Source: Escherichia phage vB_EcoM_ESCO45. Taken from it: a DNA stretch of 64,000 nucleotides. The position numbers were made by a program, and so were the translations under genes. The stretch lies in the sequence record OM386661.1, one strand, 5' to 3'. The notes below the pieces were generated by a model. That model was given only the letters and a program-made list of their open reading frames with translations. It was not told the DNA's origin and searched no databases. This document shows positions 7,959-64,000 of the stretch, piece by piece (position 1 is the first letter of the stretch; the number at the start of each line of letters is the position of its first letter).

Positions 7959-7960
7959 TA

Positions 7961-9109: not shown

Positions 9110-9117
9110 TTTCTTTA

Positions 9118-9140: not shown

Positions 9141-9155
9141 AGAGGAAAATTTATA

Positions 9156-18452: not shown

Positions 18453-18655
18453 TTTCTCTTACTACCAATTTCTACGTCGATAACTTGAACATCACCAGCA
18501 ACATCAAACTTATGAATGATGCTTTCCACAGTGTAAGTCCAACCCTCAATGCGAACAAACTCACCTTCTCGTGGGACGATTGGGTTACGTTGAGCTACGG
18601 TTGTAGTGGAGTGAACAACATCATAACGATAGGTATAGTTTACTAGGACTTCCAT
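18449..18655 (-). CDS. hypothetical protein
   Basis: 68 aa ORF, coupled to ligase start. Confidence 0.3.
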   Translation of the reverse strand: MEVLVNYTYRYDVVHSTTTVAQRNPIVPREGEFVRIEGWTYTVESIIHKFDVAGDVQVIDVEIGSKRK

Positions 18656-18664
18656 CGTTTTCCC

Positions 18665-18898
18665 TTAAAAGGATAAGTCAATATTAATACGTTCGCCCTT
18701 AAGGACTCCTGTACGGTCTCTTGCAATCTTGCCGTCAACAATAAGGATATGTGCAGACCTTAAAGCGTCACCATTAAAAGTTTTTACGAACTTACTAGGC
18801 ATCACTACAATGGGCATCTCCTGAATCATCTCTTGAGTATAGCAATTGTCGTGAAGTTGCTGAATAACGTCTGCAAGTGTCATTTTTGATGTCTCCAA
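18665..18898 (-). CDS. small protein, paralog A (shared GxKIAxDxTGxLKGER motif)
   Basis: 77 aa; ...ILIVDGKIARDRTGVLKGERINIDL...; paralogous to 19086-19304 product. Confidence 0.4.
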   Translation of the reverse strand: METSKMTLADVIQQLHDNCYTQEMIQEMPIVVMPSKFVKTFNGDALRSAHILIVDGKIARDRTGVLKGERINIDLSF

Positions 18899-19089
18899 TA
18901 TTCAATATCAATAAGTTCTTGTGCAATACTTTTCAGATTACCTTTCAAGAAAACCTTCTCAGAACCTGAAAGAGATGAATTGTCAATTAACCTGTTCATT
19001 CTCTCAAACAACTTCTGTTTACGGTTCTTGATAGTCTCCTTTGAAGCACCTTTCATCATCGCTGCATGGGTTCTTCCACGGTGGCTCAT
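18880..19089 (-). CDS. hypothetical basic protein
   Basis: 69 aa Lys/Arg-rich ORF between the two paralogs. Confidence 0.3.
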   Translation of the reverse strand: MSHRGRTHAAMMKGASKETIKNRKQKLFERMNRLIDNSSLSGSEKVFLKGNLKSIAQELIDIEYWRHQK

Positions 19090-19304
19090 AGCAAATTCTC
19101 GATGCCTACACGTTCACCTTTTAAGTACCCTGTCTTGTCTTTTGCAATTTTGCCTCCAGCAATAAAGATATCTACTCTACGCAGAAATTCAGGACTTACC
19201 TTCAAATTTCTGGAACCACTGCAAAGAACAATAAACATCCCTTCAATCTCTTTTTGAGAATAACCAGCACATTGCAACTGAACTTCAATCTCTGAAAGTG
19301 TCAT
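19086..19304 (-). CDS. small protein, paralog B (shared GxKIAxDxTGxLKGER motif)
   Basis: 72 aa; ...IFIAGGKIAKDKTGYLKGERVGIENL... Confidence 0.4.
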   Translation of the reverse strand: MTLSEIEVQLQCAGYSQKEIEGMFIVLCSGSRNLKVSPEFLRRVDIFIAGGKIAKDKTGYLKGERVGIENLL

Positions 19305-19355
19305 AAGTCCTCCTATACAAGATATAGTATAAGGTACTCTTCCCTGAGCACCTTG

Positions 19356-19859
19356 TCAACTTAGTTTTGCAAACTCTCCGTGGAGTTTAATAGCAGCTTC
19401 ACAGTAAGCTTTATGGGCTTCTTCAGGTGTGTCAAATAAACCAAGTGATGTCCTTTTACCTCTGCATGTTATAGCTGCCCTCCACTTATTGCAGTCTTTA
19501 AAGTAATATACACCCTTGTAACCTGATTTGTTAGTCGTCTGCTTTACTCTGTTTTGAGCGTTTCCATATTTATCGGCCTCTCTAAGATTAGAAATGTGGT
19601 TATTACTCCTATTACCATCAATGTGGTCTATCATCTTAGTAGGTTTGTAACCATGCTCAAACCACCAAACAAGGTGATGTACTTTTATTACAACACCTTT
19701 GAATTTAAGTACCCTGTAACCATAAGCATCACTTCCTCCGGCAACCTGACCAGCTTTAGCTTGCCTATTCCTGTCATACTTGTTGTAGAAGACCCCTTTG
19801 TCGGGGTCGTAAATAAAATTATCCTTGTAATCTTGAAGTGTTAGTGTACGGCGTACCAT
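19356..19859 (-). CDS. HNH homing endonuclease with AP2-type DNA-binding domain
   Basis: 167 aa; HHLVWWFEHGYKP...IDHIDGNRSNNHISNLR (HNH) followed by YKGVYY...WRAAI...LGLFDTPEEAHKAY (AP2-like). Confidence 0.8.
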   Translation of the reverse strand: MVRRTLTLQDYKDNFIYDPDKGVFYNKYDRNRQAKAGQVAGGSDAYGYRVLKFKGVVIKVHHLVWWFEHGYKPTKMIDHIDGNRSNNHISNLREADKYGNAQNRVKQTTNKSGYKGVYYFKDCNKWRAAITCRGKRTSLGLFDTPEEAHKAYCEAAIKLHGEFAKLS

Positions 19860-22540
19860 GTCTTACCTACCTTACCAGTGCCTGTAACAAGCGTCTTACT
19901 CTTTAATCCAAGATTTTTTGATGCTTGACCATACATTCTATCAATAATCTCCTTAACATCTGGTACATCTTTTGTTGGAACCTCTAAAGAAACTTCGTCG
20001 TGGTAACTACAGACCCATCTAGCACCAATAGCTGGTTTCCTACCATTTAGGACTGTAAGTTTTCGCTCTGTTAACTCTCTGTTAGCCAAGTTAATACCCT
20101 CATTCTGCACCTGCGCCTCACTGCCCATAAGTGTGTAATTCAATAACTTATGTGGAGATTTACACCATAACCACGCTCCAGCAACTTTGATATAACCACC
20201 TTTGGCAATTGCAGAAGTTTTTCCAAAAACCTCTTCAAGTGCTTTCTTAGTTGCTTTGAAGTCCTCCTCTAGTCTATCGAGCAGCTTTTTAATCTTAGGT
20301 AGACGCACAAAGTAAGTTTGTTTAGTCAATGCACCTTCTTCCGTAGATGATGCCTTGATAGTTTTCGCGAACTTCTCATCTCCGGCTCCAAATAACAGGG
20401 CGTAGATGCCATTTTTGCTCTTCTTACGGCCTTTTGTAATCTCGTGAAGAAGTTCCTCATCCTGTGTCTCCCTACAACGAACAATATCTTCTTCTTTGTT
20501 CAGACCAAAGTAAATACTGTTCAGTGTATGTGCATCAGTCCCTGTGTAGACTTCATAGAGGTCATTTTCAGCATCATAACGCAGATACTTGTCAGTTTCT
20601 GGGTTAAGATACTTGTCAAGATGCTTACAGTAGTATCTACCATCATCTTGCTTAGTGAACTCTACTGACTCTTTACCCTCAGTTACCGCTTTAGTGAAGT
20701 CTTCATCACCCATAAAGTTACAAAGAAGAACTAGCTGGGCTGAGTTTTGGTCTACGGAGATGATATCTGTACCATCTTCACAAGTCCACACCTCCCTCAT
20801 AGGTGCTCCATAAACAGCAGCACCAGACGGTACGTTTACAATACCATATTGTGTCATACGTCCAGTTGAAGTACCAAACACCATTGCACCAGCACTAAGG
20901 CGACCATCTGGACGAATCTGGTTCAACCAACCTTTTTCATCATCCTTTGAGTTCTCAATAGTTCTGCGTCGGTGCATCAAAGTATAGTATTTAGCAATCT
21001 TCTGTCCAAGTTCACCTTCAATCGTATCATAAGATGATTCAGTAAGTTTTGGTGAAGTACGGATTAAGCAAGGCTCAAGCAAATCTGTGTATTTCTTCAC
21101 AGACCAGTTATGCTCAATGTACTGGACACCTTCATGTTCAACATAACTCAAACCACACTGCTCAACCATTTCCTGCCACTTAGGATGTTTTGTAATCATC
21201 TTTTTATTGTCTTTGAAACGACAAACTTTGACAGGGCGACCGTCTGAGTCTTTCTTGTAGTTCCAGTCATCTGGAATCCAACCAACTGATTTCAAGTAGT
21301 CTTTAACAACTGCTACCTGAGTCATACGAGAAACTTCAAACTCAATTGGTGTATACGGTGCATCAATCAAACCTGTGTAGCGACTTGACTCAAGTTCAAA
21401 GTGGTTAACAACGTGGCTGTTATAATACTTCACAGTTTTGACTGTTTTTACTGGCTTCCAGTCTTTGCACTTCTTACCAATCTTTGCATTCAACTCGTTG
21501 CAAATTGCACGAGCATCCTTCATTGCTACAAAACCTTCCTTGTACTCTTCACCAGTTACAGAGTTGGTTGGTGTATAGCAATTCCTTTTTTCAATGTTAA
21601 AAATCTTTGTAGTTGGCTTACCAAATGGTTTGATTTCGTATGTCTGCACCTCACCATTACGTACCTGCTGACGATACTTTGTCTTAGGGTACTTGGTAAT
21701 TCTTTTCAGTCCATCTGCATGACCAAATGTTTCAACATACTCATTCCAAGCTTTTGCAAACTCTTCTCCAGTGACTTTACCTTTGGTCTTAATAGTTGGA
21801 GGAAGATGTGGTTCAACTTCTGAAGCAAGCTCATTAGTCAACTTGTCAAGTTCCTTTACATGGAACTCCATAAGCTCTTTATCAGCTTTCCAGCCATTGA
21901 TAGCTTGTTGACTCATCCAGAAAGATGTTTCTTTAGCTCGCATGTAGGTTTCATAAGTGTCTATGCCACACTTCTTAAGCTTGAGATACTCGTTATCAAG
22001 TGCCCGTTTAGTTTTGGCGTTAATACGGATATCATCTACAACACGAGTGAAGATTTCTGCATTCCACACACCCCAATGCTCAATCTCTGGCTTACGAACA
22101 CCAACACGAGCACCCCATGCAGCCAAACCATGAGCACCTTTATAACCCTTTGGAGTTGGCCTATCCATCCACTGAACACGAGACTGGATAAGAGAATCCT
22201 GAAAGAAATTACTCCACGGCTTACATTTTGGATTATCAAAGTTCCATAAATCAGGTGCAATGTGATTGAAAACCCACCAGTCATAACCGAGACCATTATG
22301 GATGCAAAGACGTTTCGCCTTTAACGCAAACTCAACACCTTCACGTAAACCACCTTTAAGGTACTTAGTGTACTTGTGACCGAGGATAGGCTCATCTGTA
22401 AAGACCCATACAGGTGGCTCTTCATCGTCAGATTTATAGTCTGCGAAAGCCATTACGTGCACTTTAGTGAACTCAAGGAGCAAACCATCAGTTTCTGTAT
22501 CGCCAACTAAATGTAAGTTTTTAAAATCTACGTTTTCCAT
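19841..22540 (-). CDS. DNA polymerase, family A, with 3'-5' exonuclease domain
   Basis: Exo I motif VGDTETDG near N-terminus; C-terminal motif C YHDE and ...GKTWYAVH terminus; start set at Met11 (22540) which has RBS GAGGGAG; longest ORF starts 22570. Confidence 0.85.
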   Translation of the reverse strand: MENVDFKNLHLVGDTETDGLLLEFTKVHVMAFADYKSDDEEPPVWVFTDEPILGHKYTKYLKGGLREGVEFALKAKRLCIHNGLGYDWWVFNHIAPDLWNFDNPKCKPWSNFFQDSLIQSRVQWMDRPTPKGYKGAHGLAAWGARVGVRKPEIEHWGVWNAEIFTRVVDDIRINAKTKRALDNEYLKLKKCGIDTYETYMRAKETSFWMSQQAINGWKADKELMEFHVKELDKLTNELASEVEPHLPPTIKTKGKVTGEEFAKAWNEYVETFGHADGLKRITKYPKTKYRQQVRNGEVQTYEIKPFGKPTTKIFNIEKRNCYTPTNSVTGEEYKEGFVAMKDARAICNELNAKIGKKCKDWKPVKTVKTVKYYNSHVVNHFELESSRYTGLIDAPYTPIEFEVSRMTQVAVVKDYLKSVGWIPDDWNYKKDSDGRPVKVCRFKDNKKMITKHPKWQEMVEQCGLSYVEHEGVQYIEHNWSVKKYTDLLEPCLIRTSPKLTESSYDTIEGELGQKIAKYYTLMHRRRTIENSKDDEKGWLNQIRPDGRLSAGAMVFGTSTGRMTQYGIVNVPSGAAVYGAPMREVWTCEDGTDIISVDQNSAQLVLLCNFMGDEDFTKAVTEGKESVEFTKQDDGRYYCKHLDKYLNPETDKYLRYDAENDLYEVYTGTDAHTLNSIYFGLNKEEDIVRCRETQDEELLHEITKGRKKSKNGIYALLFGAGDEKFAKTIKASSTEEGALTKQTYFVRLPKIKKLLDRLEEDFKATKKALEEVFGKTSAIAKGGYIKVAGAWLWCKSPHKLLNYTLMGSEAQVQNEGINLANRELTERKLTVLNGRKPAIGARWVCSYHDEVSLEVPTKDVPDVKEIIDRMYGQASKNLGLKSKTLVTGTGKVGKTWYAVH

Positions 22541-22600
22541 TTTTACTCCCTCTACAATCATTAACCTCATACATTACTGCAAAAAATTATAAAAAGCAAG

Positions 22601-22629
22601 TTGACAATGTACTTGACAAGGTGTTAATC
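22601..22629 (+). promoter_or_regulatory. candidate sigma70-like promoter in divergent control region
   Basis: Tandem TTGACA boxes (22601, 22614); TTGACA-N17-TTAATC; weak -10. Confidence 0.3.
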
Positions 22630-22797
22630 TTTGCGAAGTGGGTTTTTACTTAAAAGGTTACTTAACAGTTTAACTATACAGATACTTTAAAACTCTTAAA
22701 AGATTATTTAATAGCTTTTAAAAAGCTTTAAAGTATAACGTATAGAATACGTTAAGATAAAAGATTAAAACTTAATAGTTACTTAAAAGAGGCTTAC

Positions 22798-23220
22798 ATG
22801 CAGAAAATGTTTGTTCACCCAGACATAGCTGACTTTGTTAGAGCTTTGCAGAAGTTGGAAGAACTTGACATTGCTGCTCAACGGGAATATGCTCACCATC
22901 ACAGGAGAATGGTTGATATACAACATGAAATAGAGTTGTCTGAAAACTATGAAGATGACTTAAAATGCTCTGTATTTGAGCATATGAAAGATGTTGCTAC
23001 AGCGAGACGTAAAGCTAAAGACACAGTTGCTTTACTAGATTCTCTTAAAAAGAGGTTGCAAAGTGGTACAGACCTGTGTAATCTAGCGTCACTGATTAAT
23101 GATGTTGAAACTTCTTGGGATAGGCACTATTATCCACGTTCTGAAAAGACACTTGACTTTTCTTCATCCGAAAACTTAAAATGTTCTAGAAAGAAACTTA
23201 ACCAACTGAGAGAGAAATAA
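22798..23220 (+). CDS. hypothetical protein
   Basis: 140 aa ORF, first gene of + strand block after AT-rich divergent control region. Confidence 0.4.
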   Translation: MQKMFVHPDIADFVRALQKLEELDIAAQREYAHHHRRMVDIQHEIELSENYEDDLKCSVFEHMKDVATARRKAKDTVALLDSLKKRLQSGTDLCNLASLINDVETSWDRHYYPRSEKTLDFSSSENLKCSRKKLNQLREK

Positions 23221-23221
23221 T

Positions 23222-24022
23222 ATGAATATCAATGTAGAAAAGATGCTTGAAGAAAAGGGTATTGACGAAGCGTTCTTAATCAATGCCGTAGAAAGTATGG
23301 CTATGATTCTTCGTGGGAACAACTACACAGAACAGTTTATGCCTGCAAGCTACAATCTGCCTAAAGACAAGTCTGATAACGATGCTTTTGCAGAACAGGT
23401 TAACATGATGTTGACAGACACTACACTTGCTCTGGCATCTATTGCGGTTGGTGTTGATGCACTTGCTGAGTTCATTTTTTATGAAATGCAAAAGAATGAC
23501 TATATCAGGATGTCAGACGAAGATAAGGAACTGCTGCTGACTAAGGACACTGATTTCATTATTGATACGCTTATCTCATCAACGAGTGCTGTTATGGCTG
23601 TTCTTGAGAAGCGTATGGAAGAAAAGCTGTCACGATATGAAAAGCTTGATTGGGGTGTAGAAGAACTAAACCCACGAATCAAAGAGATTATCCAGCAAAC
23701 CAAAGAGTCTTTGGAAGAAGCTGTGGAGAATGACTTTGTAGCTGATATAGAGCCGCTTCAGGTGAAAGTTGCACTGATGATTCCAGCTATCTCTACAATG
23801 ATGAATATCGTTGCACTAATCCAACTTTCACAGGTGATGGGTGTGAGTATGGAGTTCATTGAGGAGATGACTGGTGGTGTTAGTATGCAAGCAATCAATG
23901 ATGTTTTGGTGAACATTGGTGCTTCAATCATTGAAGAGAAACTACGCATTAACTTCGGTGATGATTTTGTGAAGCAACTCTCAGCTATGGCTGAAAAAGA
24001 GTCTGCTGAGCAACTGCACTAA
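23222..24022 (+). CDS. hypothetical protein
   Basis: 266 aa acidic ORF; terminator-like hairpin at 24041-24066. Confidence 0.4.
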   Translation: MNINVEKMLEEKGIDEAFLINAVESMAMILRGNNYTEQFMPASYNLPKDKSDNDAFAEQVNMMLTDTTLALASIAVGVDALAEFIFYEMQKNDYIRMSDEDKELLLTKDTDFIIDTLISSTSAVMAVLEKRMEEKLSRYEKLDWGVEELNPRIKEIIQQTKESLEEAVENDFVADIEPLQVKVALMIPAISTMMNIVALIQLSQVMGVSMEFIEEMTGGVSMQAINDVLVNIGASIIEEKLRINFGDDFVKQLSAMAEKESAEQLH

Positions 24023-24040
24023 GTCTTTATAAATCTTACA

Positions 24041-24066
24041 AGCCTCCTTAGTTGGGGGCTTTTTAG
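24041..24066 (+). terminator. rho-independent terminator
   Basis: AGCCTCC-loop-GGGGGCT followed by TTTTT. Confidence 0.45.
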
Positions 24067-24083
24067 TAATTAAGGGAGATAAA

Positions 24084-24827
24084 ATGAGTAAAATCATTGC
24101 ATTTACTGGAAAGGCACGTTCTGGAAAAGACACCTCATGTTCTATTGTGAAGAACACCTTAGAGGATGAGTATGGCTACAATGTTGAAGTAATGGCCTTT
24201 GCAGACAACCTTAAACTATCTGCATCAAAGATATTTGACTTGACTTGGAATGACCTGTACGGTGAAACTAAAGAGACTCCACAGGTATTTGACTTATCAT
24301 ATCCTGAACTGATGTTTAAAGTTACGGAAGCTATGGAGTTTACCTTCAAAGGTGAACGTTATCACACGGACTTTAAACTTGTGTCGGAATTGACAGGACG
24401 CTTAATCATGGAGCTTAAGAAGGTTGCTAAACCGACTCTATTGACACGTCTGGGGTTTAGCAAAAAGTATAAATTCTCATCAAGACAAATTCAACAGATT
24501 TGGGGCACTGAAGTTATCCGTAAAGTTATGGGTGACAAGTTCTGGGCTAAAGACCTTGAAAAACGAATGGCTCGCTTCTTTGAATCTTGTTCACTTAGAA
24601 ATCAAGAAGGTGTTGTTTTAATCAGTGATTTAAGATTTGACTCTGAAGCTGAGTGGCTGAGTAGATTTGCACACCAAACTATTGAAGTAAAAAGAGACAA
24701 TGTGGGCAAAGTTTCATCACATGTTTCAGAAAATGGCATTTCTACAAAATATGAGCGTGACATTATTCATAATAATGGTACTATTGAAGACCTTGAGAGC
24801 AAGCTAAGAGCTATCCTGAAGATTTAA
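24084..24827 (+). CDS. deoxynucleoside monophosphate kinase
   Basis: 247 aa; N-terminal IIAFTGKARSGKDT P-loop as in T4 gp1 dNMP kinase (FLSGVKRSGKDT); RBS AGGGAG. Confidence 0.65.
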   Translation: MSKIIAFTGKARSGKDTSCSIVKNTLEDEYGYNVEVMAFADNLKLSASKIFDLTWNDLYGETKETPQVFDLSYPELMFKVTEAMEFTFKGERYHTDFKLVSELTGRLIMELKKVAKPTLLTRLGFSKKYKFSSRQIQQIWGTEVIRKVMGDKFWAKDLEKRMARFFESCSLRNQEGVVLISDLRFDSEAEWLSRFAHQTIEVKRDNVGKVSSHVSENGISTKYERDIIHNNGTIEDLESKLRAILKI

Positions 24828-24835
24828 AAGAGAGA

Positions 24836-25036
24836 ATGAAGATGAGAGTAAAAGACAATTTTAAAGTGATTGACCACCGTTTAGTGGAACTCTCATCTCT
24901 TTCCAATGAGGTAATGATTGAACGTCTTAAGAGAGTTGAATCACGAAGGAAAGAGATTGCAGATGAAATTCATGAACTGGACAAGATTGAAAATGGACTG
25001 AAGGTAGAACTACAACGAAGAGGTGCTAATGTCTAA
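24836..25036 (+). CDS. hypothetical small coiled-coil protein
   Basis: 66 aa ORF. Confidence 0.3.
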   Translation: MKMRVKDNFKVIDHRLVELSSLSNEVMIERLKRVESRRKEIADEIHELDKIENGLKVELQRRGANV

Positions 25037-27014
25037 AGGTCGTAAATTGAAAGAGGCTGGTCAGTTTATTGGTCATTGTGCATGTCCACGTTGTGGTTCA
25101 TCAGATGCTGGTTCAATCTATCATCATGATGATGATTCTTATTCGATGACTTGCTTTAGTTGTAACAAAGGTTTCCCAGAGTGGGATTTTGATAAAGGAC
25201 AAATCGTGAGCGCTTATTCTACTGGTTCAGACAATAAAAACCGTACTTTCCGTGGGATGGATTTAGACGATGTGAAAGAAAACCTTGAAGCAATGGACTT
25301 AAAGGACAGGAAGATTCCTGCAAAAGTCCTTGAACGCTTAGGTATCAAGGTTGACATTGACAGTGACGGTGAAATTGATGCGCACTTCTATCCGACTTAC
25401 AAACGTAATGAAGATGGCAAGCTAGAGCATGTTGGCTACCGTGTTCGTCACCGTTACCCAGAAGACCATCCAAAAGAGCACCTACGTGGTAAGTTAAAAG
25501 ACTTTTCAGGTGGTGTTGGAGACATTAAAGGTGAACTGGCAATGTTCGGTTCATGGATTGCTCCAGAAGGCGGTAACCGTCTATTCATCTGGGAAGGTGA
25601 GATGGAATGTGCGACAGCAATCTATATGACTTCTTTGGCGATTAAAGATAAGTCTCGTCGTAAGAATTACTGTCACGTATCTGTTCCATCAGGTGCAAAC
25701 ATTAAGTCTATCAAAGACAACTACCAGTACATCACATCATTTGATGAGATTTACTTGTGCTTTGATAACGATGAAGCAGGTGCTAAAGCCACTAAAGAGG
25801 CTGCTGGTATCCTACCCATTGAGAAGGTTCGTTTATTCCAGTATCCAGAAGGTGTAAAAGACCTTAACGAGTGGTGGACAAAGTTCTATAAAGAGAAAGA
25901 TACAGTTCTGGAAGGATTTAAGCAGCGTATCTACAATGCACCTCGTTACTGCCCTGCTGGTATCAAGAACTTCGCAGATGGTTTTGAGGCAATGAAGAAT
26001 CGTGGTCAGATTCCATTGATTCCTTTCCCAGAATCTTTCGGAGATTTGAACAGGCTGACTTATGGCGGTTATGGTTTAGGTGAGATTACAACTCTGGCAG
26101 CACCATCTTCAGTGGGTAAATCTGCATACACTCGTGAAATGATTTATACTGCTTGGAAAGATACCGATTACAACATTGGTGTAATTCCTGTAGAAGATAC
26201 CTATGAAGAGTTGATGGAGATGCTCTGTGCAATCCACCTGAGCAAGCAGATTTCTGAGATTCCTTATGACGAACGTGATTGGGATGAATTGAAGGAGGCA
26301 CACGCAGAACTGTCTAAAGGTCGTCGTATCCACATCGTTGACCATCAAGGGGCAATTGACCAAGATAACTTGCTGGAATTTGTTGACTATCTTGTTAACA
26401 GTTTAGACTGTAAGATTATTATTCTTGACCCTATTACGTTGGCTCTGTCACGTTCAGATACGGATGAAGAGGAAGTTTTGTCTGAGCTATTGCGTCGTTG
26501 CAAACGCTACCAGTATGCACAGGTAAACGTCTGTCACGTTCGTAAGAGTGCAGGTGGTCAGAAGGCTAACTCTGAAGGTGGAGATATCTCTGAAGAGGAT
26601 ATTAAAGGCTCTGGTGCGTATTTCCAGATTTCTATGAACAACATTCTGTTAATGCGTAACAAGGTTGACCCAGACCCTGTTAAGAAAAACTTGACAAAAA
26701 TCAAGTTAACTAAATGTCGTCGTCACGGTAAGTCAACGGGTATTGCTGGTCATACTTGGTACAATCCAGATACAGGGCGTCTTATCAAAGCATCTGGTTG
26801 CGGAGTTGACATTGACGGTGCAGCAGAAAATATTCGCCAACAGTTTGGCATTGGTGAAGCTGAAGACCATTACGATGACTCTTTGCCACATTATGAGGAT
26901 GAAGTGTTTGACCGTGATACTGGTGAAGTCTATACTGAAGAGCAGCGTCAAAGCTCAACGATTCCACCTGTATTAAGTGAGGATGCAGATGACTGCCCGT
27001 TCGAAACTGAGTGA
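25029..27014 (+). CDS. bifunctional DNA primase-helicase (T7 gp4-like)
   Basis: N-terminal Zn finger CACPRCG...CFSCNKG, TOPRIM-like FDNDEAGAKA, helicase Walker A APSSVGKSAYT and Walker B IIILDP; ATG 25029 preferred over GTG 25023. Confidence 0.8.
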   Translation: MSKGRKLKEAGQFIGHCACPRCGSSDAGSIYHHDDDSYSMTCFSCNKGFPEWDFDKGQIVSAYSTGSDNKNRTFRGMDLDDVKENLEAMDLKDRKIPAKVLERLGIKVDIDSDGEIDAHFYPTYKRNEDGKLEHVGYRVRHRYPEDHPKEHLRGKLKDFSGGVGDIKGELAMFGSWIAPEGGNRLFIWEGEMECATAIYMTSLAIKDKSRRKNYCHVSVPSGANIKSIKDNYQYITSFDEIYLCFDNDEAGAKATKEAAGILPIEKVRLFQYPEGVKDLNEWWTKFYKEKDTVLEGFKQRIYNAPRYCPAGIKNFADGFEAMKNRGQIPLIPFPESFGDLNRLTYGGYGLGEITTLAAPSSVGKSAYTREMIYTAWKDTDYNIGVIPVEDTYEELMEMLCAIHLSKQISEIPYDERDWDELKEAHAELSKGRRIHIVDHQGAIDQDNLLEFVDYLVNSLDCKIIILDPITLALSRSDTDEEEVLSELLRRCKRYQYAQVNVCHVRKSAGGQKANSEGGDISEEDIKGSGAYFQISMNNILLMRNKVDPDPVKKNLTKIKLTKCRRHGKSTGIAGHTWYNPDTGRLIKASGCGVDIDGAAENIRQQFGIGEAEDHYDDSLPHYEDEVFDRDTGEVYTEEQRQSSTIPPVLSEDADDCPFETE

Positions 27015-39908: not shown

Positions 39909-42275
39909 ATGCGCATGGTAAACGACCACGCAGAAGTGATTAAGAGTTCAACTTCTTTGGAGACATCTCAAGCACAGATTATAATGACACCTGAAATGTT
40001 CAGTCTCCTGAGTTCTGATGTATATACCTTTAAAGAAAGAGCAGTGATTCGTGAACTATCGTGTAATGCAGTAGATGCTCAGAAAGAAGTTGGAAAAGAG
40101 AACATCCCATTCCATGTGCATTTACCTACTCGATTTGAGCCTTACTTTGAAGTCCGTGACTTTGGAACTGGTTTAACCCATGACAAAGTAATGAATTTGT
40201 ATCTGAACTATGGGGCTTCTACGAAGAATGATTCTAATGACTACATTGGTGCAATGGGTATCGGCTCAAAGTCACCGTTTGCGATTGCTCAGTCATTCAC
40301 AGTGTCTAGCTATGTTGATGGTGTTGTTAATAAATACTCTGTTTACCTTGAGAATGATATCCCTCAAGTAACTAAGCTTACTACTAACCAAACAAATGAA
40401 CCTAATGGATTAGCTGTACGTGTGGCTGTTGCTGACCATCGTATTTCAAAGTTCTTTGAAGAGGCTGGTCACGTATACTCATACTTTGCTGTAAAACCAG
40501 AAAGTAATATTGTATATGATGACGTGTTAGCAGATATGAACGTCATTGCCCGTGAAGAAGGTGTTTATGATGCCATGATTCATAAGCAAAGCTGGCGTTC
40601 CAGTATTAACAGAACAGGGTTTAATGTGGTGATGGGTAATATTGCCTATCCAGTTAATATGGAAGCATTACTTGGCGATGATTTCTTCAAGGTCTTGCCA
40701 GAATTTTTCCGTAGAAGTGTAGACCTTGTAAACATCTACATGCCTATTGGTTCAGTTGCTATTGCAGCTTCTCGTGAAGCATTGCAGATGAATGATACGA
40801 CAAAAAATGTTATCATTGAGGCTACTAAAAAGATAACTGAAGCAATTACAAGGGACGTTATTAAGGGGGTTAATAGCCAACCTACACTTATGGATGCTGC
40901 ACAGGCTTATGCAGAGCTACGCTTGAACTCACGAGAAATGTTTAATGCTGTGTGTCCAAAGCTAGAGTGGGGAGGTGTTAAGCTTGACTCTCTGGAAAAA
41001 GAATTGTTAAACATTCGTCGTGGAATTATCTACGCAGAAGATGGCTCAGTCATCTATGAACGTGACGGCAAAGGTAATATTAAGGTTGATAAGAACGGAA
41101 ACAACATCCCTAAAGTAGATTATCTTTATAGCCCAGTTGCTTATGTTAAGTTTAACTCTTTAGAGAGTAAGATTCGTGCAACAGCACTTTCCTACACTCA
41201 AGAGGCAAGTATGTTCAATATCTTTGGTGCAATGCGTAAAAGCCAAGTTGAACAGTTTTTGTTTGTTATTAATGACCGTCGCAATAAAAACGGTACTGAG
41301 AAGACTGTAGGACGCAATCAAATCTTGCGTGGTGCATGTCGAGACTACGCCAACGAGTCAAATCTGTTTCACAGATACAATGGTATTGTGTTTGTATTCT
41401 CGACTGAAAAAGAGTTAGATGATTTAATCAATCTACACAAACTTGATAAAAGCTTGTTAAAGATTGTGAAAATGTCTGATAAGGAACACCATTACCAGCG
41501 TAAAGAAGCTGTAAGAGGTGTTGTAAAACTCTGGAAAGCAGTTCCGGCAGAAGGTGTAGCCTCCTACAAAGAGGTGTCAGAAGACTTAGACACAATTGAG
41601 GAGCCTCAGCTTTACATTAAGGCAGTTGGTGACACAGTTGATGGTGAATGTTTTTGCTCATCTCCAGAAGATGTAGCTAAGTCAGTTGCTAATGTTACAG
41701 GGAAGACAGTCTATGTTTTCCGAAAAGCAAATTGGAAAAAGATACCAGAAGGCTGGATTGAAGTAGATGAGAAGCTCTTGAACGACAGCTTAACTGATGT
41801 TCATTGGATTAATCATAACAGGTATATGACACGCATCTACATGAATGGTGTTCTTGACCTTACAAGCAGTTGGATTATTGCCAGAAACTTTACATTCAAT
41901 AACAGGAAGATTTCTCGTGGTTATTGCTATTCACGAGATACTAACAAAACTATCTTCCTAGAAGGTAATGAGGATGCTGTAGAGGCAATTTTCGGTAAAA
42001 TCCAGTATGTTGCTGCACCATTTGCATACACTTACACTATTAGTGTCTTGCAAACTCTGAAAGGGTGTCTTGACAATAACACAAAGCTTTACAAGAAAAT
42101 CAGGAAAGCTGGTGACCGTATGGTTATTAAGGTGACAAACTACCTTTCAAAAAGAAAACAAGAAAATTTCTTGCTTTCCCATTTAGATTGGAATAAAGTG
42201 TCACCTATTGAAGTGAGTAAGCTCTTAGGCTTTGATGTGAAGTGTGTTCCAGAAGGTACAACACTTTACGATTAA
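39909..42275 (+). CDS. rIIA: rIIA-like protein (GHKL-type ATPase N-terminal domain)
   Basis: 788 aa; Bergerat-fold motifs IRELSCNAVDAQ (N box), DFGTGLT (G1), GAMGIGSKSPF (G2); size and pairing with downstream rIIB-like gene. Confidence 0.55.
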   Translation: MRMVNDHAEVIKSSTSLETSQAQIIMTPEMFSLLSSDVYTFKERAVIRELSCNAVDAQKEVGKENIPFHVHLPTRFEPYFEVRDFGTGLTHDKVMNLYLNYGASTKNDSNDYIGAMGIGSKSPFAIAQSFTVSSYVDGVVNKYSVYLENDIPQVTKLTTNQTNEPNGLAVRVAVADHRISKFFEEAGHVYSYFAVKPESNIVYDDVLADMNVIAREEGVYDAMIHKQSWRSSINRTGFNVVMGNIAYPVNMEALLGDDFFKVLPEFFRRSVDLVNIYMPIGSVAIAASREALQMNDTTKNVIIEATKKITEAITRDVIKGVNSQPTLMDAAQAYAELRLNSREMFNAVCPKLEWGGVKLDSLEKELLNIRRGIIYAEDGSVIYERDGKGNIKVDKNGNNIPKVDYLYSPVAYVKFNSLESKIRATALSYTQEASMFNIFGAMRKSQVEQFLFVINDRRNKNGTEKTVGRNQILRGACRDYANESNLFHRYNGIVFVFSTEKELDDLINLHKLDKSLLKIVKMSDKEHHYQRKEAVRGVVKLWKAVPAEGVASYKEVSEDLDTIEEPQLYIKAVGDTVDGECFCSSPEDVAKSVANVTGKTVYVFRKANWKKIPEGWIEVDEKLLNDSLTDVHWINHNRYMTRIYMNGVLDLTSSWIIARNFTFNNRKISRGYCYSRDTNKTIFLEGNEDAVEAIFGKIQYVAAPFAYTYTISVLQTLKGCLDNNTKLYKKIRKAGDRMVIKVTNYLSKRKQENFLLSHLDWNKVSPIEVSKLLGFDVKCVPEGTTLYD

Positions 42276-59986: not shown

Positions 59987-60272
59987 CGTTAAACTCTCTG
60001 ACGAAGAAATAGTTGACTTTGTTATTACCTACCATAAGGTCAAAGCAGGTATTCTCAAAAGGTTTGTTGTAGGCATCGTATGAAACATATGGGTCAGCTA
60101 CTTGCTTAGTGCTTAACTTCTTACTTGATGGGTTTAAGAGGCCACCATATAGCTTCTTGATAGCCTCTTCTACAACAGACCAGATAATTTCGTCAGTAAT
60201 TTCTTCGTACAGGTCAAGTTCACGCTCTAGTGAGAAGTCACAAATAGGGAAAATAACCTGTACTTTACTCAT
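59979..60272 (-). CDS. hypothetical protein
   Basis: 97 aa ORF. Confidence 0.35.
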   Translation of the reverse strand: MSKVQVIFPICDFSLERELDLYEEITDEIIWSVVEEAIKKLYGGLLNPSSKKLSTKQVADPYVSYDAYNKPFENTCFDLMVGNNKVNYFFVREFNDE

Positions 60273-60667
60273 TAGCGAATGACCTGTGTGACTTGAATTG
60301 CTTCAGTTACAGACAAATCCCCTACTTTATCTTCTGTGATAAAGGTGAAGGTGAGTTCAACAGGTTCTTGCTCTTCTTGCTCAACTGGAACACCATTAAG
60401 CTCATCAAAGATTGATTGAGTAGTCCAGTCTTCTCCACCATCTGGGTAGTGGATTGCGTAAAGAGGGAACTCTAAATTATACCAAGCAAAAACAGGGCAA
60501 CCATCTGCATCATCTCGACATCTGTGGAGATATGTGTTTGTACCTTCGAAGTGCAGATGGAGATTACCATTCTTCTCAAATAGAATAGCATCTCGCAGGT
60601 CTAATTCTTCATTTTCGCTGTAACGGCTAACATCGACTTTAACTTTAATCTGACTGATATTATTCAT
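60272..60667 (-). CDS. hypothetical protein
   Basis: 131 aa ORF. Confidence 0.4.
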   Translation of the reverse strand: MNNISQIKVKVDVSRYSENEELDLRDAILFEKNGNLHLHFEGTNTYLHRCRDDADGCPVFAWYNLEFPLYAIHYPDGGEDWTTQSIFDELNGVPVEQEEQEPVELTFTFITEDKVGDLSVTEAIQVTQVIR

Positions 60668-61058
60668 AAAAACCTCTCTCTGCTAGTTTTATCTTTTCTT
60701 TGAGTGTTTCACAACGCTCTATGTGATATTTTGCTTCACACTCGTGGGTTGCTAACTCTCTTTCAAGTAGAGTTTTATAATAACCTGACAATTGCTCTGC
60801 TGTCAATGGGTGTTCAGAAATAATATCTAATCCACTCTCTCCAAGAGGGTTGAACCGACCGTACTCATCTACTTTGTAAATCTCGAACCTGAAAAACCCA
60901 TTTTTAGCACGGGTAATAGGTGATAGTTCAGCTAACTCTACAGTGAACTTTGTACAAACCTCATCACCACTTACTACAATCTGGCTGCCAATAATCCTCA
61001 CCATTGAACCATCACGAGTGTACTTAAAAGTTCCAAAGTCACTAGCCCAAAGTTTCAT
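60660..61058 (-). CDS. hypothetical protein
   Basis: 132 aa ORF. Confidence 0.4.
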   Translation of the reverse strand: MKLWASDFGTFKYTRDGSMVRIIGSQIVVSGDEVCTKFTVELAELSPITRAKNGFFRFEIYKVDEYGRFNPLGESGLDIISEHPLTAEQLSGYYKTLLERELATHECEAKYHIERCETLKEKIKLAERGFYE

Positions 61059-61075
61059 AGTTTTCTCCTTAGAAA

Positions 61076-61098
61076 ATAAAAAGGCTCCCGAAGGAGCC
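61076..61098 (-). terminator. rho-independent terminator (minus strand) after endolysin gene
   Basis: GGCTCC-ttcg-GGAGCC on minus strand followed by TTTTATTTT. Confidence 0.55.
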
Positions 61099-61108
61099 TA
61101 TGAAGATA

Positions 61109-61573
61109 TTACTTTGGGTATACACTGTCAAGATAAATGTCAGCTTCCATTCTACGTCTGTTTTTCAGTCCGTTTGAAGTGACCTTCTTACCTTTGACTG
61201 TAACCTTGTTCCACCACTGCATAGCTTCTGCACAACCGACCTTATTACCAGCATTGTGGCGCTTGATAAACGTAGAGTCCTGCATAGCCGTGATACCAAT
61301 GTTGTATGTTTCACTTACAAGTGCGTCAAACTCATTCTGAGAAGTTGGAACCTTGATGGCTTTGTTAACTGCTGCAACGAACTTTTCAACATCTTCGAGA
61401 AGATACTGTTCAGCTTGTCCAGCGGTAATCTTCATACCCATCTTAACAGGTTTGCCAGAAATACGGATTGTTCCGTACCCAATTGTGGGGATTCCAGCAG
61501 AATCTTCGTAAGCCTCTAGCTTAAGACCTTCAAAGAACTTAATAGCTTCTAAGCCTTTTCTTGAGAGTTGCAT
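61109..61573 (-). CDS. endolysin, T4-lysozyme-like muramidase (GH24)
   Basis: 154 aa; FEGLKLEAYEDSAGIPTIGYG matches GH24 lysozyme catalytic region; minus-strand terminator at 61076-61098. Confidence 0.75.
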   Translation of the reverse strand: MQLSRKGLEAIKFFEGLKLEAYEDSAGIPTIGYGTIRISGKPVKMGMKITAGQAEQYLLEDVEKFVAAVNKAIKVPTSQNEFDALVSETYNIGITAMQDSTFIKRHNAGNKVGCAEAMQWWNKVTVKGKKVTSNGLKNRRRMEADIYLDSVYPK

Positions 61574-62706
61574 TATGCCTCCCCTGCTGGGTTAACTGTA
61601 ACTGCTGCTGCATCAGATGTTACAGAGCCACCTGCACCAGTAACTACACAGGTGTAGCTTCCTGTATCAGCAGCGGTTGCATCTTCTTTGGTGTAAGTTG
61701 CAGCAGTTGCATCGAGGATGTCTTCCTCACCTTTCTTCCACTGGTAGCCTGTTGCACCAGTTGCCACAACACTCAGCGTTAAGGTATCACCTTCAGTGAT
61801 TTCTTGATTGGTTGGCTGCTGAGTGATTACCGGAAGTGCATTCACAGTAACTGTTGCAGCATCAGATTCCACAGAACCACCTGCACCTGTTACAACGCAA
61901 GTGTATGAACCTGCATCTGCTGGAAGCGCACCAGACTTGCTATAGGTAGCCTCTGTAGCCGAAGGAATGTCAGAGCCATCTTTCTTCCACTGATAGCCTG
62001 TTGCACCTGTTGCAGTCACTTCCAAGTTAATGTTTCCACCCTCATTGATGGTCTGGCTAGAAGGTTGCTGTGTAATCACAGGCAGTGCGTTGACAGTAAC
62101 TGTTGCCGCATCTGAGGTAACACTTGTACCAGCCTCTCCAGACACAACACAAGTATAAGAACCAGCATCAGCAGTGGTTGCACTTTCTTTGGTGTAAGTT
62201 GCAGATGTGGCACTAGTGATATCCTCACCATCCTTTTTCCATTGATATCCAGTGGCATTCGTTGCAACAACACTTAGGGTAAGCGTACCACCTTCATTTA
62301 CTGTTTGATTGGTTGGCTGCTGAGTGATTACTGGTGGCTTGATAGCATCCTTCAACTTAGCATTCAGCATTGAGAATGGTTTAACTCTTGCCAACCATTC
62401 ACAATAAACCGTATCAACATCTTTATCATTGATAATTGCATATTGTAGGTCCATGAAGAAGTCAGAAGTCCTCATTTGAGCACCGATGCTGTAAAGTAAC
62501 TCATCACTAAATGGAACTTTGTAGTCTGGCTCGTAGTCAAACTCCTCAACTTCTGCAATATCAGCTTCAGGCCAATATGAGCTATAGGTAAGCGGTAAAA
62601 TAGCCTCCTGATATGTTCTAAAATCATATCTCTTACCAGCCTTTACATTTGCAACGAAGCCATTCACAAACTCTTTGAAGTCTGGGTAAGTCTTTGCTTT
62701 AATCAT
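61573..62706 (-). CDS. Ig-like domain repeat protein (three tandem Ig-like modules)
   Basis: 377 aa; three ~85-aa repeats (PVITQQP(T/S)NQ...GATGYQWKKDG...GSYTCVV...TVTVNALPVITQQP) typical of Ig-like/Big modules; N-terminal ~120 aa paralogous to 62699-63073 product. Confidence 0.6.
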   Translation of the reverse strand: MIKAKTYPDFKEFVNGFVANVKAGKRYDFRTYQEAILPLTYSSYWPEADIAEVEEFDYEPDYKVPFSDELLYSIGAQMRTSDFFMDLQYAIINDKDVDTVYCEWLARVKPFSMLNAKLKDAIKPPVITQQPTNQTVNEGGTLTLSVVATNATGYQWKKDGEDITSATSATYTKESATTADAGSYTCVVSGEAGTSVTSDAATVTVNALPVITQQPSSQTINEGGNINLEVTATGATGYQWKKDGSDIPSATEATYSKSGALPADAGSYTCVVTGAGGSVESDAATVTVNALPVITQQPTNQEITEGDTLTLSVVATGATGYQWKKGEEDILDATAATYTKEDATAADTGSYTCVVTGAGGSVTSDAAAVTVNPAGEA

Positions 62707-63073
62707 TTCTTTCAGCCTCTAAATGTGCGTTTAGTCTAAAATAACCTTTGTGATGCGGAGATACATCACCAACAACAATACCTTTAACCTCATAACCTTC
62801 ACCAATTACATACTGGATATCCATAAGAAATCTTCCAAGACCAACAATATGGAACATTGGATATAATAGATTCTCAGAGTCTGGAATATTGATTTCAGGA
62901 TTGTAGGTACACTGTTCGCTTGTTGGTGTGATTTCTTCTTCAGGCCATTTATCGAGCCTCCATGTCAAAGGTGTTGGGATAACATCATTAAGGTTGTACC
63001 TTTCACCATTTTTCACGGAATTGATATAGGTTTGTAGGAAGCAATAAAAGTCTTTTGCACTCTTAGCTTTCAT
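62699..63073 (-). CDS. hypothetical protein, paralog of N-domain of Ig-like protein
   Basis: 124 aa; shared pattern AK(S/T)xxDFxxFxxxxxxxVKxGxRY...FMDLQY(A/V)I. Confidence 0.45.
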   Translation of the reverse strand: MKAKSAKDFYCFLQTYINSVKNGERYNLNDVIPTPLTWRLDKWPEEEITPTSEQCTYNPEINIPDSENLLYPMFHIVGLGRFLMDIQYVIGEGYEVKGIVVGDVSPHHKGYFRLNAHLEAERND

Positions 63074-63120
63074 TAAATACCCTTATAAATAGTTAAAGGG
63101 GCATTAGCCCCTATTCACAC

Positions 63121-63711
63121 TTAAGTTTTGGTCTTAAGTAGGTTCTTAAGTTTTTTAAGATTCATACTCTCATCAAACTTAAAACCAAATCCATTGACAT
63201 AATCAATGAACTCGGATTTCTTACTGAGTGACAATGCGTAACTCATATCAAAGTTCTTACTTGTTTCTGCGTCTGGACTAGAGTTCACATCAAATGAAAT
63301 TTTTGTAGGTTCTTGCTTACTTTTTCTCATATTATCAACCAACAAACATGTATAGTTTGCTGGATAGAAGTTTACACTACCATCAACGTAGCTGTACTTA
63401 TTATTATGGATAAGGTTGGAAAATACCTTAAGAAATGTTTCTGAGTCGTGGCAAACAAGTTTGAATTGGCTGCTCTCTCCAAGCGCAACTAATGAGTACG
63501 GACTTTCACTATCAAAGTTATAATTTGGATTCGATGTCGTCACTGTTATACGCATCAAGTTATTAGCAATAGTCTTCTGTTTAAAAGAAGTTGGAACATA
63601 GTGAAGACCTCTACAGCACTGATTAACTAACTCTTTCAATAGGTCATTTGCATACGGTGAATTAATTGATACAGAGCCATCACTATTGTAATTAAAACTT
63701 ACTGTTAACAT
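63121..63711 (-). CDS. hypothetical protein
   Basis: 196 aa ORF. Confidence 0.4.
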   Translation of the reverse strand: MLTVSFNYNSDGSVSINSPYANDLLKELVNQCCRGLHYVPTSFKQKTIANNLMRITVTTSNPNYNFDSESPYSLVALGESSQFKLVCHDSETFLKVFSNLIHNNKYSYVDGSVNFYPANYTCLLVDNMRKSKQEPTKISFDVNSSPDAETSKNFDMSYALSLSKKSEFIDYVNGFGFKFDESMNLKKLKNLLKTKT

Positions 63712-63938
63712 TTTTCAGTTCTCCTGCGGTTTATAATTTTGCTGCAATAGAGAAACGAAGTAAACTCACTGGAAGAAACCATTAAGTGTTGTTCACTAGA
63801 TTGAGCCATTGCCCTGAAATACATTCCAGTCAAAGCATCATAGTGACTATTCTTTCCAATTGAGGTTATATAGCCATGACTCTTTGCAGTTTGATATAAA
63901 TCTATAATATCTGCGATTTCTAATTGGGAACTACACAT
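63705..63938 (-). CDS. hypothetical protein
   Basis: 77 aa ORF. Confidence 0.3.
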   Translation of the reverse strand: MCSSQLEIADIIDLYQTAKSHGYITSIGKNSHYDALTGMYFRAMAQSSEQHLMVSSSEFTSFLYCSKIINRRRTEKC

Positions 63939-64000
63939 AGATAATCCTCTTGTCTTCTGTAATTTTGAAAGAACAGGTACAGACCAATTTCAGAGGATGA

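Follow-up and report, generated by a model that had tools for sequence, protein, structure and literature searches.

An Ig-repeat protein encoded beside the endolysin gene of Escherichia phage vB_EcoM_ESCO45 is a probable hexamer-center capsid decoration, and its upstream neighbor a paralog of the capsid anchor alone

Two cryo-EM studies have described capsid decorations closely related to the protein considered here: gp20 of the Shigella phage Sf14, a Mooglevirus (PDB 9C2D/9C3A chain S; Commun Biol 2025, PMC11821841), and Hex-Dec of Bas63, Escherichia phage JohannRWettstein (PDB 9NCF chain S; Sci Adv 2025, PMC12609058). In both, the N-terminal domain sits in the centers of the pentamer-proximal hexamers of a T=9 head, and flexible Ig domains project from the head as in T4 Hoc. 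This capsid-binding domain (CapBD) consists of two similar lobes, related by a pseudo-two-fold, in the solved structures. In Sf14, its residues R79 and R107 make salt bridges with Asp221 of the major capsid protein (MCP), and in the hexamers on the 3-fold axes the Asp221 residues that would pair with these arginines are displaced (PMC11821841). Where a hexamer lies on an icosahedral 3-fold axis, averaging over the symmetry would blur the density of a single bound monomer. Mass spectrometry (MS) has detected proteins of this kind in virions, namely Felix O1 gp36 (14 peptides, 44% coverage), the ortholog in Sf14 (PMC11821841) and, to judge by passages of the VpaE1 paper, probably the VpaE1 ortholog as well. 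Across the genus, the number of Ig copies ranges from 1 to 4 (PMC12609058), and the position of the gene away from the structural module has been remarked upon both in the Felix O1 genome paper (PMC3185647) and in the Bas63 structure paper (PMC12609058).

T4 Hoc is alike in being a non-essential monomer at the hexamer center, from which a string of Ig-like domains projects as an acidic fiber (PMC12609058, PMC11821841). However, its capsid-binding domain is C-terminal, whereas that of Hex-Dec is N-terminal, and the domain displays a distinct topology and minimal sequence similarity to that of Bas63 (PMC12609058). In T5 pb10 (PDB 5LXK, 8ZVI), the Ig domain is detectably homologous to the protein studied here (E about 1e-11), but the match is confined to the Ig region (query residues 215–292); pb10 has a single Ig domain, and no pb10 chain was matched by the CapBD-like paralog discussed below. 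A distant CapBD homolog, gp38 of the Erwinia phage phiEa21-4 (Kolesnikvirus; labeled 'conserved structural protein'), occupies the same position, between a homolog of the 196-aa gene and the endolysin gene. It differs in carrying a bacterial Ig domain of the Big_2 type instead of I-set repeats, and no CapBD-only paralog adjoins it.

The window, by which we mean the whole 64,000-nt stretch of DNA analyzed here, is from a Felixounavirus: its DNA is 98% identical to that of Escherichia phage vB_EcoM_ESCO49, and it is matched by 249 Felix O1-like records. An earlier, sequence-only reading had singled out a 377-aa protein in which three tandem Ig-like repeats follow an N-terminal domain paralogous to the product of a 124-aa ORF immediately upstream, encoded in a group of small genes adjoining the endolysin gene. 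The ORFs were confirmed at the stated positions (Table 1), beside the endolysin gene and away from the structural genes. Three stretches of the 377-aa protein match Ig families in Pfam (Ig_3, E=3e-33; I-set, 2e-25; Ig_2, 1.5e-24). The paralogy likewise holds: BLASTP aligns the 124-aa protein with the N-terminal domain at 35% identity over 92 aa (E=1e-14), and the two can be aligned end to end (aa 1–122) at 32–34% identity.

Table 1. Features of the paralog/Hex-Dec/endolysin block in the window
Feature	Position	Strand	Basis
124-aa paralog of Hex-Dec CapBD, without Ig	62699..63073	-	phrog_4463
Probable Hex-Dec ORF, 377 aa	61573-62706	-	CapBD and three Ig repeats
CapBD (capsid-binding domain), aa 1-123 of Hex-Dec, with R79 and R107	62338..62706	-	identity to solved chains
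Ig-like (I-set) repeat 1, aa 125-208	62083..62334	-	Pfam Ig_3, I-set, Ig_2; repeat family D1; ortholog of Bas63 Ig1, 90% aa
Ig-like (I-set) repeat 2, aa 209-291	61834..62082	-	Pfam; repeat family; ortholog of Bas63 Ig2, 96% aa
Ig-like (I-set) repeat 3 and short tail, aa 292-377	61576..61833	-	Pfam; ortholog of Bas63 Ig4, 87% aa
Endolysin, GH24, T4-lysozyme type, 154 aa	61109..61573	-	Pfam Phage_lysozyme E=1.3e-40; phrog_7 endolysin E=8.8e-57
Intrinsic terminator, AGGCTCCTTCGGGAGCCT then T run, end of three-gene block	61082..61099	-	terminator scan and sequence; terminator annotated at same place in wV8
GC hairpin AGGGGC-TAAT-GCCCCT, between 196-aa upstream gene and paralog	63097..63112	-	sequence; Rho-independent terminator annotated at equivalent wV8 site

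In phmmer searches of the PDB, the 377-aa protein matched 9ncf_S (E=2e-277) and 9c2d_S (E=2e-168), both collinearly from residue 1. Its CapBD is 95% identical in amino acid sequence to that of Bas63 and 87% identical to that of Sf14, and in the alignment to the solved chains it carries Arg79 and Arg107, both of which are conserved in Sf14 gp20. Judged by these alignments, it is the ortholog of Bas63 Hex-Dec (9NCF chain S) and of Sf14 gp20 (9C2D chain S). The likeness to Bas63 extends to Ig1, Ig2 and the terminal Ig domain (87–96%) and to the gene neighborhood, in which the paralog gene precedes and the endolysin gene follows. However, Bas63 Hex-Dec has four Ig domains versus three here, and the window protein is more acidic, with a net charge of −7 on its CapBD as compared to −1 in Bas63. 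Sf14 gp20 has three Ig domains and the same gene order, but its Ig domains are only ~63–70% identical to those in the window, and a small gap rather than an overlap precedes the endolysin gene. We consider it very probable that the 377-aa protein is the Felixounavirus Hex-Dec, a capsid decoration of the Sf14 gp20-like, Hoc-like kind, and that the 124-aa ORF encodes a homolog of its CapBD. With respect to T4 Hoc, it is a functional analog and not a family member; no T4 Hoc entry was present among the best 60 of the 106 PDB sequence matches to the full protein, or among all 4 matches to the paralog. The decoration of virions implied by the sequence-only reading is borne out in relatives, by cryo-EM (9NCF, 9C2D) and by virion MS (Felix O1, Sf14 and presumably VpaE1).

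In this phage, the CapBD (the N-terminal ~120 aa, mostly helical, with pseudo-two-fold symmetry) would plug as a monomer into the 60 pentamer-proximal hexamer centers of a T=9 head, Arg79 and Arg107 would anchor the protein through salt bridges to Asp221 of the MCP, and the three I-set Ig domains would extend outward as a flexible acidic fiber. By analogy with T4 Hoc, this fiber would probably mediate a weak attachment to host cells, mucus or surfaces, or else control the aggregation of particles. The MCP gene, sought on account of Asp221, was not found in the 64,000-nt window, of which the large ORFs were listed and ten were classified.

Current labels in GenBank and PHROG make the protein a tail or major tail protein: phrog_3995 is called 'tail protein' and Felix O1 gp36 'major tail protein', and many major tail proteins, for instance those in phrog_158 and phrog_853, do carry C-terminal Ig domains of the same type. 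However, the similarity to tail proteins is limited to the Ig repeats (stretches 120–208 only), and the N-terminal domain of the orthologs has been modeled into hexamer-center density of the capsid in two independent cryo-EM studies. We give the tail reading next to no credence; it is effectively refuted, and the 'tail protein' labels are misannotations.

As the sequence-only reading had pointed out, the Ig repeats are visible in the DNA, where a seed-and-extend comparison finds three copies of 206 nt at spacings of 249 and 252 nt with 64–74% identity. Tandem Repeats Finder, run on positions 60000–64000, did not report the ~250-nt period because the repeat is too diverged. Detectability at the DNA level, together with a repeat number that varies from 1 to 4 within the genus, might suggest a recent tandem duplication in this phage lineage, as the same reading had proposed. 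The units themselves tell otherwise. Pairwise, they are 67–78% identical in amino acid and 65–75% in nucleotide sequence, whereas the Bas63 orthologs of window Ig1, Ig2 and Ig3 are Ig1, Ig2 and Ig4, respectively, and each window unit is 87–96% identical in amino acid sequence to the ortholog at the corresponding position in wV8 and Bas63. Moreover, nucleotide identity between units (65–74%) is no higher than amino acid identity (67–77%). Since the units have diverged more from each other than from their orthologs, the synonymous divergence is large and the triplication older than these phages, and a recent duplication is extremely improbable, being refuted by this comparison. The variation in number looks as if whole units had been gained or lost; Bas63 Ig3, for one, has no counterpart in the window protein. 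What is said here of repeat number rests on individual loci and the Bas63 paper (PMC12609058), as a word-indexed protein search with the CapBD only returned almost only 210-aa single-Ig forms and was unsuited to a census of repeat number.

The Hex-Dec gene belongs to a small, translationally coupled block, comprising the genes for the paralog, Hex-Dec and the endolysin, that is bounded by hairpins and lies far from the head genes. The tail module is found at positions 11–11510 of the window, which begins inside the tape-measure gene. The endolysin start and the Hex-Dec stop overlap by 1 nt, and the paralog and Hex-Dec genes overlap by 8 nt here, by 4 nt in wV8, Bas63, Sf14 and VpaE1, and by 1 nt in a metagenomic lineage. 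A programmed frameshift fusing the paralog to Hex-Dec was considered and rejected because these differences in overlap length change the frame relation between lineages, with only the coupling being kept. The GC hairpin ahead of the paralog gene, which is the upstream boundary of the block, has a weak T tract, and the terminator scan made no call there. A scan for sigma-70 promoters upstream of the paralog yielded nothing convincing (3 hits versus 6.8 expected). The order paralog, Hex-Dec, endolysin is also seen in wV8, Bas63, Sf14, VpaE1 and an 87-kb metagenomic contig. Instead of being atypical, as the sequence-only reading had it, the arrangement is conserved in some 230 Ounavirinae genomes.

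The paralog resembles the capsid anchor in both sequence and predicted fold. Its PHROG family and that of the 377-aa protein match each other with E values of about 1e-14 to 1e-15, and a phmmer search of the PDB retrieved 9c2d_S (5.5e-11) and 9ncf_S (1.3e-10). A first AF2 model built from 24 close sequences had a pLDDT of 52 and was unusable; when distant family members from a scan of 1.84 billion proteins were added, the pLDDT rose to 80, with a pTM of 0.79. In a Foldseek search with this model, the only significant PDB matches were 9c2d_S (TM 0.74/0.76, E=1e-5) and 9ncf_S (TM 0.72), the next having E>1; as CapBD sequences were part of the AF2 alignment, the agreement in fold is to some extent tied to the homology in sequence. 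According to the model, the paralog keeps the CapBD fold. The arginine anchors fare differently: R79 aligns to Gly78, which is invariant in the paralogs, and R107 to His, Gln or Asn in most of them, Arg being present in P0043 and the distant metagenomic P0098.

Orthologs of the paralog include Felix O1 gp37, wV8 gp42, Bas63 bas63_0125 and Sf14 FDI99_gp021. It is present at at least 80% coverage in 232 of 252 phage records; these intact copies range over Felixounavirus, Mooglevirus and the SUSP phages and reach a lineage that is only 43–48% identical. In ~20 of the 252 records it is pseudogenized, and SP116, REP10 and Tf share one deletion. Within a 14-sequence alignment (A1), 66 of 124 columns are invariant. 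The dN/dS ratio of 0.07–0.27 (at dS 0.7–2.6) points to purifying selection; the corresponding values for the CapBD are 0.04–0.12, and dN of the paralog is 2–5 times higher. An NJ tree weakly groups the Erwinia-type CapBD with the paralog clade on a short internal branch, and the duplication is dated only as older than the divergence of Felixounavirus, Mooglevirus and the metagenomic lineage. The 124-aa gene is best read as an old duplicate of the CapBD alone. Its product has probably kept the fold and the hydrophobic core, but both Arg anchors are gone, and the gene itself can be lost.

In the literature searched the paralog is unreported, the 377-aa Hex-Dec itself being already known. Expression of ORF 36 and of ORF 37 in Felix O1 is late, with a peak at 60 min for each. 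The product of the latter, gp37, is absent from the virion MS list; as this list was cut off at 25% coverage and at the top 17 proteins, the absence is weak evidence. The paralog is also absent from the Sf14 gene-product table and supplement (PMC11821841), and the passages of the VpaE1 text on virion MS name no protein like it. Both Sf14 and Bas63 encode an intact paralog; the two cryo-EM papers (PMC11821841, PMC12609058) do not mention it or assign density to it.

That the paralog binds capsid or procapsid hexamers in any form is a low-confidence guess, at somewhat below an even chance; a transient form of this, in which it would be a weak or short-lived binder of hexamer centers, for instance on procapsids or at sites without Hex-Dec, is a more tentative guess. 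We think it unlikely that the paralog is a second, Ig-less decoration stably present in virions, where it would either fill the 20 3-fold hexamers left free by Hex-Dec or, as a competitor of Hex-Dec, set the density of fibers. The modeled fold does match the capsid anchor over its full length, both genes are late in Felix O1, and their translational coupling is kept in every lineage examined. Given the displacement of the Asp221 partners at the 3-fold hexamers, a binder there would need no Arg anchors, and symmetry averaging could hide a stable paralog. However, no density is reported at other hexamers in Sf14 and Bas63, the protein is missing from the Felix O1, Sf14 and (in the passages concerned) VpaE1 virion data, both arginines are lost, and the SP116 clade dispenses with the gene.

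A role on Hex-Dec itself seems just as unlikely. The paralog might be translated together with Hex-Dec as its partner or chaperone, pairing with the pseudo-symmetric CapBD to hold Hex-Dec soluble or inactive until heads mature, as would suit a gene directly upstream of, coupled to and co-expressed with that of Hex-Dec; a CapBD made of two similar lobes might accommodate a homologous domain as a pairing partner. Yet phages without the paralog keep an intact Hex-Dec (210–293 aa) with a CapBD that is near-identical by eye, so that Hex-Dec is not obligatorily dependent on it. Loss in ~20 records, faster protein evolution than that of the CapBD and absence from the virion data could also mark a functionless remnant of a tandem duplication that is heading to loss, but the intact gene in 232 records, including the most distant lineage, the low dN/dS at considerable dS and the invariant columns make this highly unlikely. 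On the low-confidence guess of hexamer binding, the paralog would be a late, non-essential accessory rather than a stable virion component. A bolder proposal, that it is an Ig-less 'blank plug', a third capsid-interacting protein of Felix O1-type phages that acts at 3-fold hexamers, on procapsids or in competition with Hex-Dec, we regard as rather doubtful.

For the Ig protein, the analysis adds little that is new, since its structure, location, presence in virions, off-module position and variation in repeat number were published between 2010 and 2025; the practical gain is that the labels 'tail protein' and 'major tail protein', which are widespread, can be corrected. The paralog poses a modest question, that of a conserved, selected and late-expressed copy of a capsid anchor only, which the natural null clade (SP116, REP10, Tf) and the K-12-infecting phage Bas63 make easily testable. 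Were the 'blank plug' proposal true, the paralog would set where and how densely the Ig fibers are shown, and would be an encoded regulator of occupancy; we know of no such regulator for T4 Hoc or T5 pb10. If the paralog touches the capsid at all, it would bear on the design of phage-display scaffolds from the CapBD anchor and on why Hex-Dec fills only 60 of the 80 hexamers.

In a PDB sequence search, the 377-aa Ig-repeat protein encoded in the window overwhelmingly matched chain S of 9NCF (E=2e-277), deposited for phage Bas63 as "Immunoglobulin-like domain protein", as well as chain S of 9C2D/9C3A (E=2e-168), which comes from Shigella phage Sf14 and is labelled "tail protein", and it was collinear with these chains from residue 1 onward. 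The Hoc-like decoration protein is gp20 in Sf14 and Hex-Dec, the name used here, in Bas63; a capsid-binding domain (CapBD) spans its N-terminal ~118 aa and occupies, as a monomer, the centre of pentamer-proximal hexamers in the T=9 head (PMC11821841, PMC12609058). The Sf14 and Bas63 maps show no CapBD density in hexamers that lie on 3-fold axes, the flexible Ig domains have no resolved density, and both groups put forward Hoc-like roles in adhesion and aggregation control by analogy (PMC11821841, PMC12609058). In Sf14, Arg79 and Arg107 form salt bridges to Asp221 of three capsid subunits, and gp20 was found in particles by mass spectrometry (PMC11821841). The Felix O1 ortholog, gp36, was identified in virions with 14 peptides at 44% coverage, at that time under the mistaken label "major tail protein" (PMC3185647). 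The Bas63 gene lies more than 10 kb from the structural module, and across Felixounavirus species the conserved CapBD bears between one and four Ig domains (PMC12609058).

All features of the Hex-Dec/gp20 family that are open to sequence testing were found in the window protein. Both R79 and R107 are present, and its CapBD is 95% identical to that of Bas63 and 87% to that of Sf14. With its three Ig domains it is an ordinary family member, like gp41 of phage wV8. In the orthologs, CapBD has been shown to plug the hexamer centre through Arg–Asp salt bridges with the Ig string pointing outward, and the window protein would do likewise. The full-length protein has a pI of 4.2, and the acidic Ig fibre might, by analogy with T4 Hoc, provide weak, multivalent adhesion or aggregation control. 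T4 Hoc works alike, but the 377-aa protein does not belong to its family, as the domain order is reversed and the capsid-binding domains are unrelated; no T4 Hoc entry appeared among the PDB matches listed (best 60 of 106 for the full protein, all 4 for the paralog discussed below). Architecture and Ig homology are shared with T5 pb10, whereas the anchor differs.

Many database records label Hex-Dec "tail protein" or "major tail protein", and the name "S-layer homolog protein" occurs as well. The "tail protein" label in GenBank and PHROGs derives from Ig-domain similarity and is wrong, contradicting the cryo-EM capsid assignments.

Pfam placed three Ig_3, I-set, and Ig_2 stretches on the 377-aa ORF, with E values down to 3e-33, and the DNA contains three 206-nt copies spaced by 249 and 252 nt. 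The tandem Ig-like repeats proposed in the sequence-only reading, visible also at the DNA level, are thereby borne out together with their coordinates; TRF did not report the DNA repeat, its divergence being too great. The units share 67–78% amino-acid and 65–75% nucleotide identity. Within the protein, nucleotide identity between units (65–74%) does not exceed amino-acid identity (67–77%); together with the closer match of each unit to its orthologs, this means that the units split long ago under purifying selection. The recent duplication that had been proposed does not hold, as units are 67–77% identical to one another at the amino-acid level versus 87–96% to their Bas63 orthologs. Ig1, Ig2, and Ig3 correspond to Bas63 Ig1, Ig2, and Ig4 (90%, 96%, and 87% identity), Bas63 Ig3 has no window counterpart (best identity 71%), and every unit is 90% identical to the same-numbered wV8 unit. 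Judging from these alignments, Ig copy number appears to vary through gain or loss of whole units.

Three co-oriented minus-strand ORFs occupy positions 61109–63073. Both hairpins bounding this block are annotated as terminators at the equivalent wV8 sites. The paralog, Hex-Dec, and endolysin genes are translationally coupled in all lineages examined, with differing overlaps, which reflect coupling rather than frameshifting. Escherichia phage vB_EcoM_ESCO49 shares 98% DNA identity with the window in this region, and matches were found in 249 Felix O1-like records; the window therefore belongs to a Felixounavirus genome. It runs from the tape-measure gene through baseplate, tail-fibre, and replication genes and rIIA to small leftward genes with the Hex-Dec locus, and no head genes lie within its 64 kb. 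A "Staphylococcus phage" record among the matches, with SA1 named in a VpaE1 annotation note, is probably mislabelled or contaminated rather than a true host jump. The 196-aa gene upstream keeps its synteny with the decoration gene even in the distant Erwinia phage phiEa21-4 (gp39) and in the metagenomic lineage, and may belong functionally with the block.

Features of the Hex-Dec locus, its surroundings, and paralog pseudogenes
Feature	Position	Strand	Remarks
Tape measure	11-2170		Window layout
Two tail-fibre genes	7961-11510		Window layout
Other layout genes	11-11510, 17352-27014, 39909-42275		Also baseplate hub and wedge, DNA ligase, DNA polymerase, primase-helicase, ribonucleotide reductase, rIIA-like gene
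Strong intrinsic terminator	61082-61099	-	Downstream of three-gene block; scan and sequence
Endolysin ORF, 154 aa	61109-61573	-	Pfam Phage_lysozyme, E=1.3e-40; start and Hex-Dec stop overlap by 1 base
Hex-Dec ORF, 377 aa	61573-62706	-	ATG 8 nt inside paralog ORF end
CapBD of Hex-Dec	62338-62706	-	N-terminal part of Hex-Dec ORF
Ig units of Hex-Dec	aa 125-208, 209-291, 292-377
Paralog ORF, 124 aa	62699-63073	-	No Pfam match
GC hairpin	63097-63112	-	Upstream of three-gene block; sequence
196-aa gene	63121-63711	-	phrog_4034, label without function
REP10 paralog pseudogene	L002:2306-2497		Syntenic to 62699-63073
SP116 paralog pseudogene	L009:1306-1497		Syntenic to 62699-63073
Tf paralog pseudogene	L010:1306-1497		Syntenic to 62699-63073

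The 124-aa protein encoded directly upstream aligns end to end with Hex-Dec residues 1–122, at 35% identity by BLASTP (E=1e-14) and 32–34% in a MAFFT alignment, and the PHROG families of the two proteins cross-hit reciprocally, confirming the proposed paralogy with the N-terminal domain. With a deeper alignment, AlphaFold2 modelled the paralog at pLDDT 80 and pTM 0.79; in Foldseek against the PDB the model matched only the two solved CapBDs (TM 0.72–0.76, E about 1e-5; next hit E>1), a match to be read with the presence of CapBD sequences in the AlphaFold2 input alignment in mind. Columns that the two families have in common hold mainly hydrophobic or aromatic residues, Pro, or Gly, which we read as core conservation. 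The position of R79 is an invariant Gly in paralogs; that of R107 varies among His, Gln, and Asn in the majority, and two paralogs, P0043 and the distant P0098, have Arg there. Where dS is unsaturated, dN/dS is 0.07–0.27 for the paralog versus 0.04–0.12 for CapBD, and in the same phage pairs dN of the paralog is 2–5 times that of CapBD. The highest dN/dS observed, 0.43 for the window–wV8 paralog pair, has few changes behind it. Net charge is −6 in the window paralog versus +2 in wV8 and −7 versus −3 for CapBD, an acidic shift through Lys/Arg to Glu/Asn/Cys substitutions. Some 124-aa paralogs carry the name "Tail protein" in UniRef.

When 1.84 billion representative proteins were scanned exhaustively with a profile, only 12 CapBD family members emerged, in which the domain is fused to I-set Ig or Big_2, carries a Lys/Ser-rich tail, or stands alone; the capsid anchor is a swappable module. 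Among distant homologs (phiEa21-4 gp38, L008:2336-2950, and proteins P0100–P0104), the I-set repeats are replaced by Big_2, in Erwinia phages and metagenomic proteins, by a different Ig type, or by the Lys/Ser-rich tail. Among 252 phage records with CapBD-like sequence, 232 contain the paralog at a coverage of at least 80%, in Felixounavirus, Mooglevirus, and SUSP phages. On an 87-kb metagenomic contig it is 43–48% identical with gene order unchanged; phiEa21-4 (Kolesnikvirus) has one CapBD gene at the syntenic site, the Big_2 fusion, without a paralog. In a neighbour-joining tree, paralogs and Hex-Dec CapBDs form separate clades, each with its own metagenomic member, and the duplication is therefore older than the metagenomic split. 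Natural null mutants occur, as about 20 of the 252 records lack an intact paralog. SP116, REP10, and Tf have a paralog pseudogene that bears one common lesion (ATG to ATA, a 1-nt deletion with frameshift, and an internal deletion of ~225 nt by eye), and Hex-Dec with its CapBD is intact in all three.

Bas63 (bas63_0125) and Sf14 (FDI99_gp021) both encode an intact paralog immediately upstream of their decoration gene; we found no mention of it in the Sf14 paper and supplement, in the Bas63 paper, or by literature searches. Felix O1 microarray data put the expression peak of ORFs 36 and 37 (Hex-Dec and paralog) at 60 min and that of the lysin ORF 35 at 25 min, and gp37 is missing from the proteins identified in virions (PMC3185647). 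The text on the VpaE1 virion proteome names no equivalent (gp040 in that phage). The different peak times of Felix O1 genes within one apparent transcription unit hint that the block contains a further promoter or that its mRNA differs in stability along its length; our promoter scan gave no convincing candidate.

We lean weakly towards the paralog being a real, selected, late, non-essential protein that has kept the anchor fold and lost the anchors. That it binds capsid or procapsid hexamers in any form is plausible, at somewhat below an even chance. Within that estimate, transient or weak binding is in itself rather unlikely, and a stable place in the virion is improbable: published maps and mass spectrometry lists speak against stable decoration, while detection cut-offs, together with icosahedral averaging where hexamers lie on 3-fold axes, leave some room for it. 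A role as partner or chaperone of Hex-Dec also seems improbable, and the natural null clade speaks against an obligatory chaperone. A new, unrelated function is possible but on the unlikely side, and a functionless remnant very improbable.

With this CapBD-only paralog, undescribed in the literature searched, as its one loose end, the Ig-repeat finding is real, yet already explained by published work.
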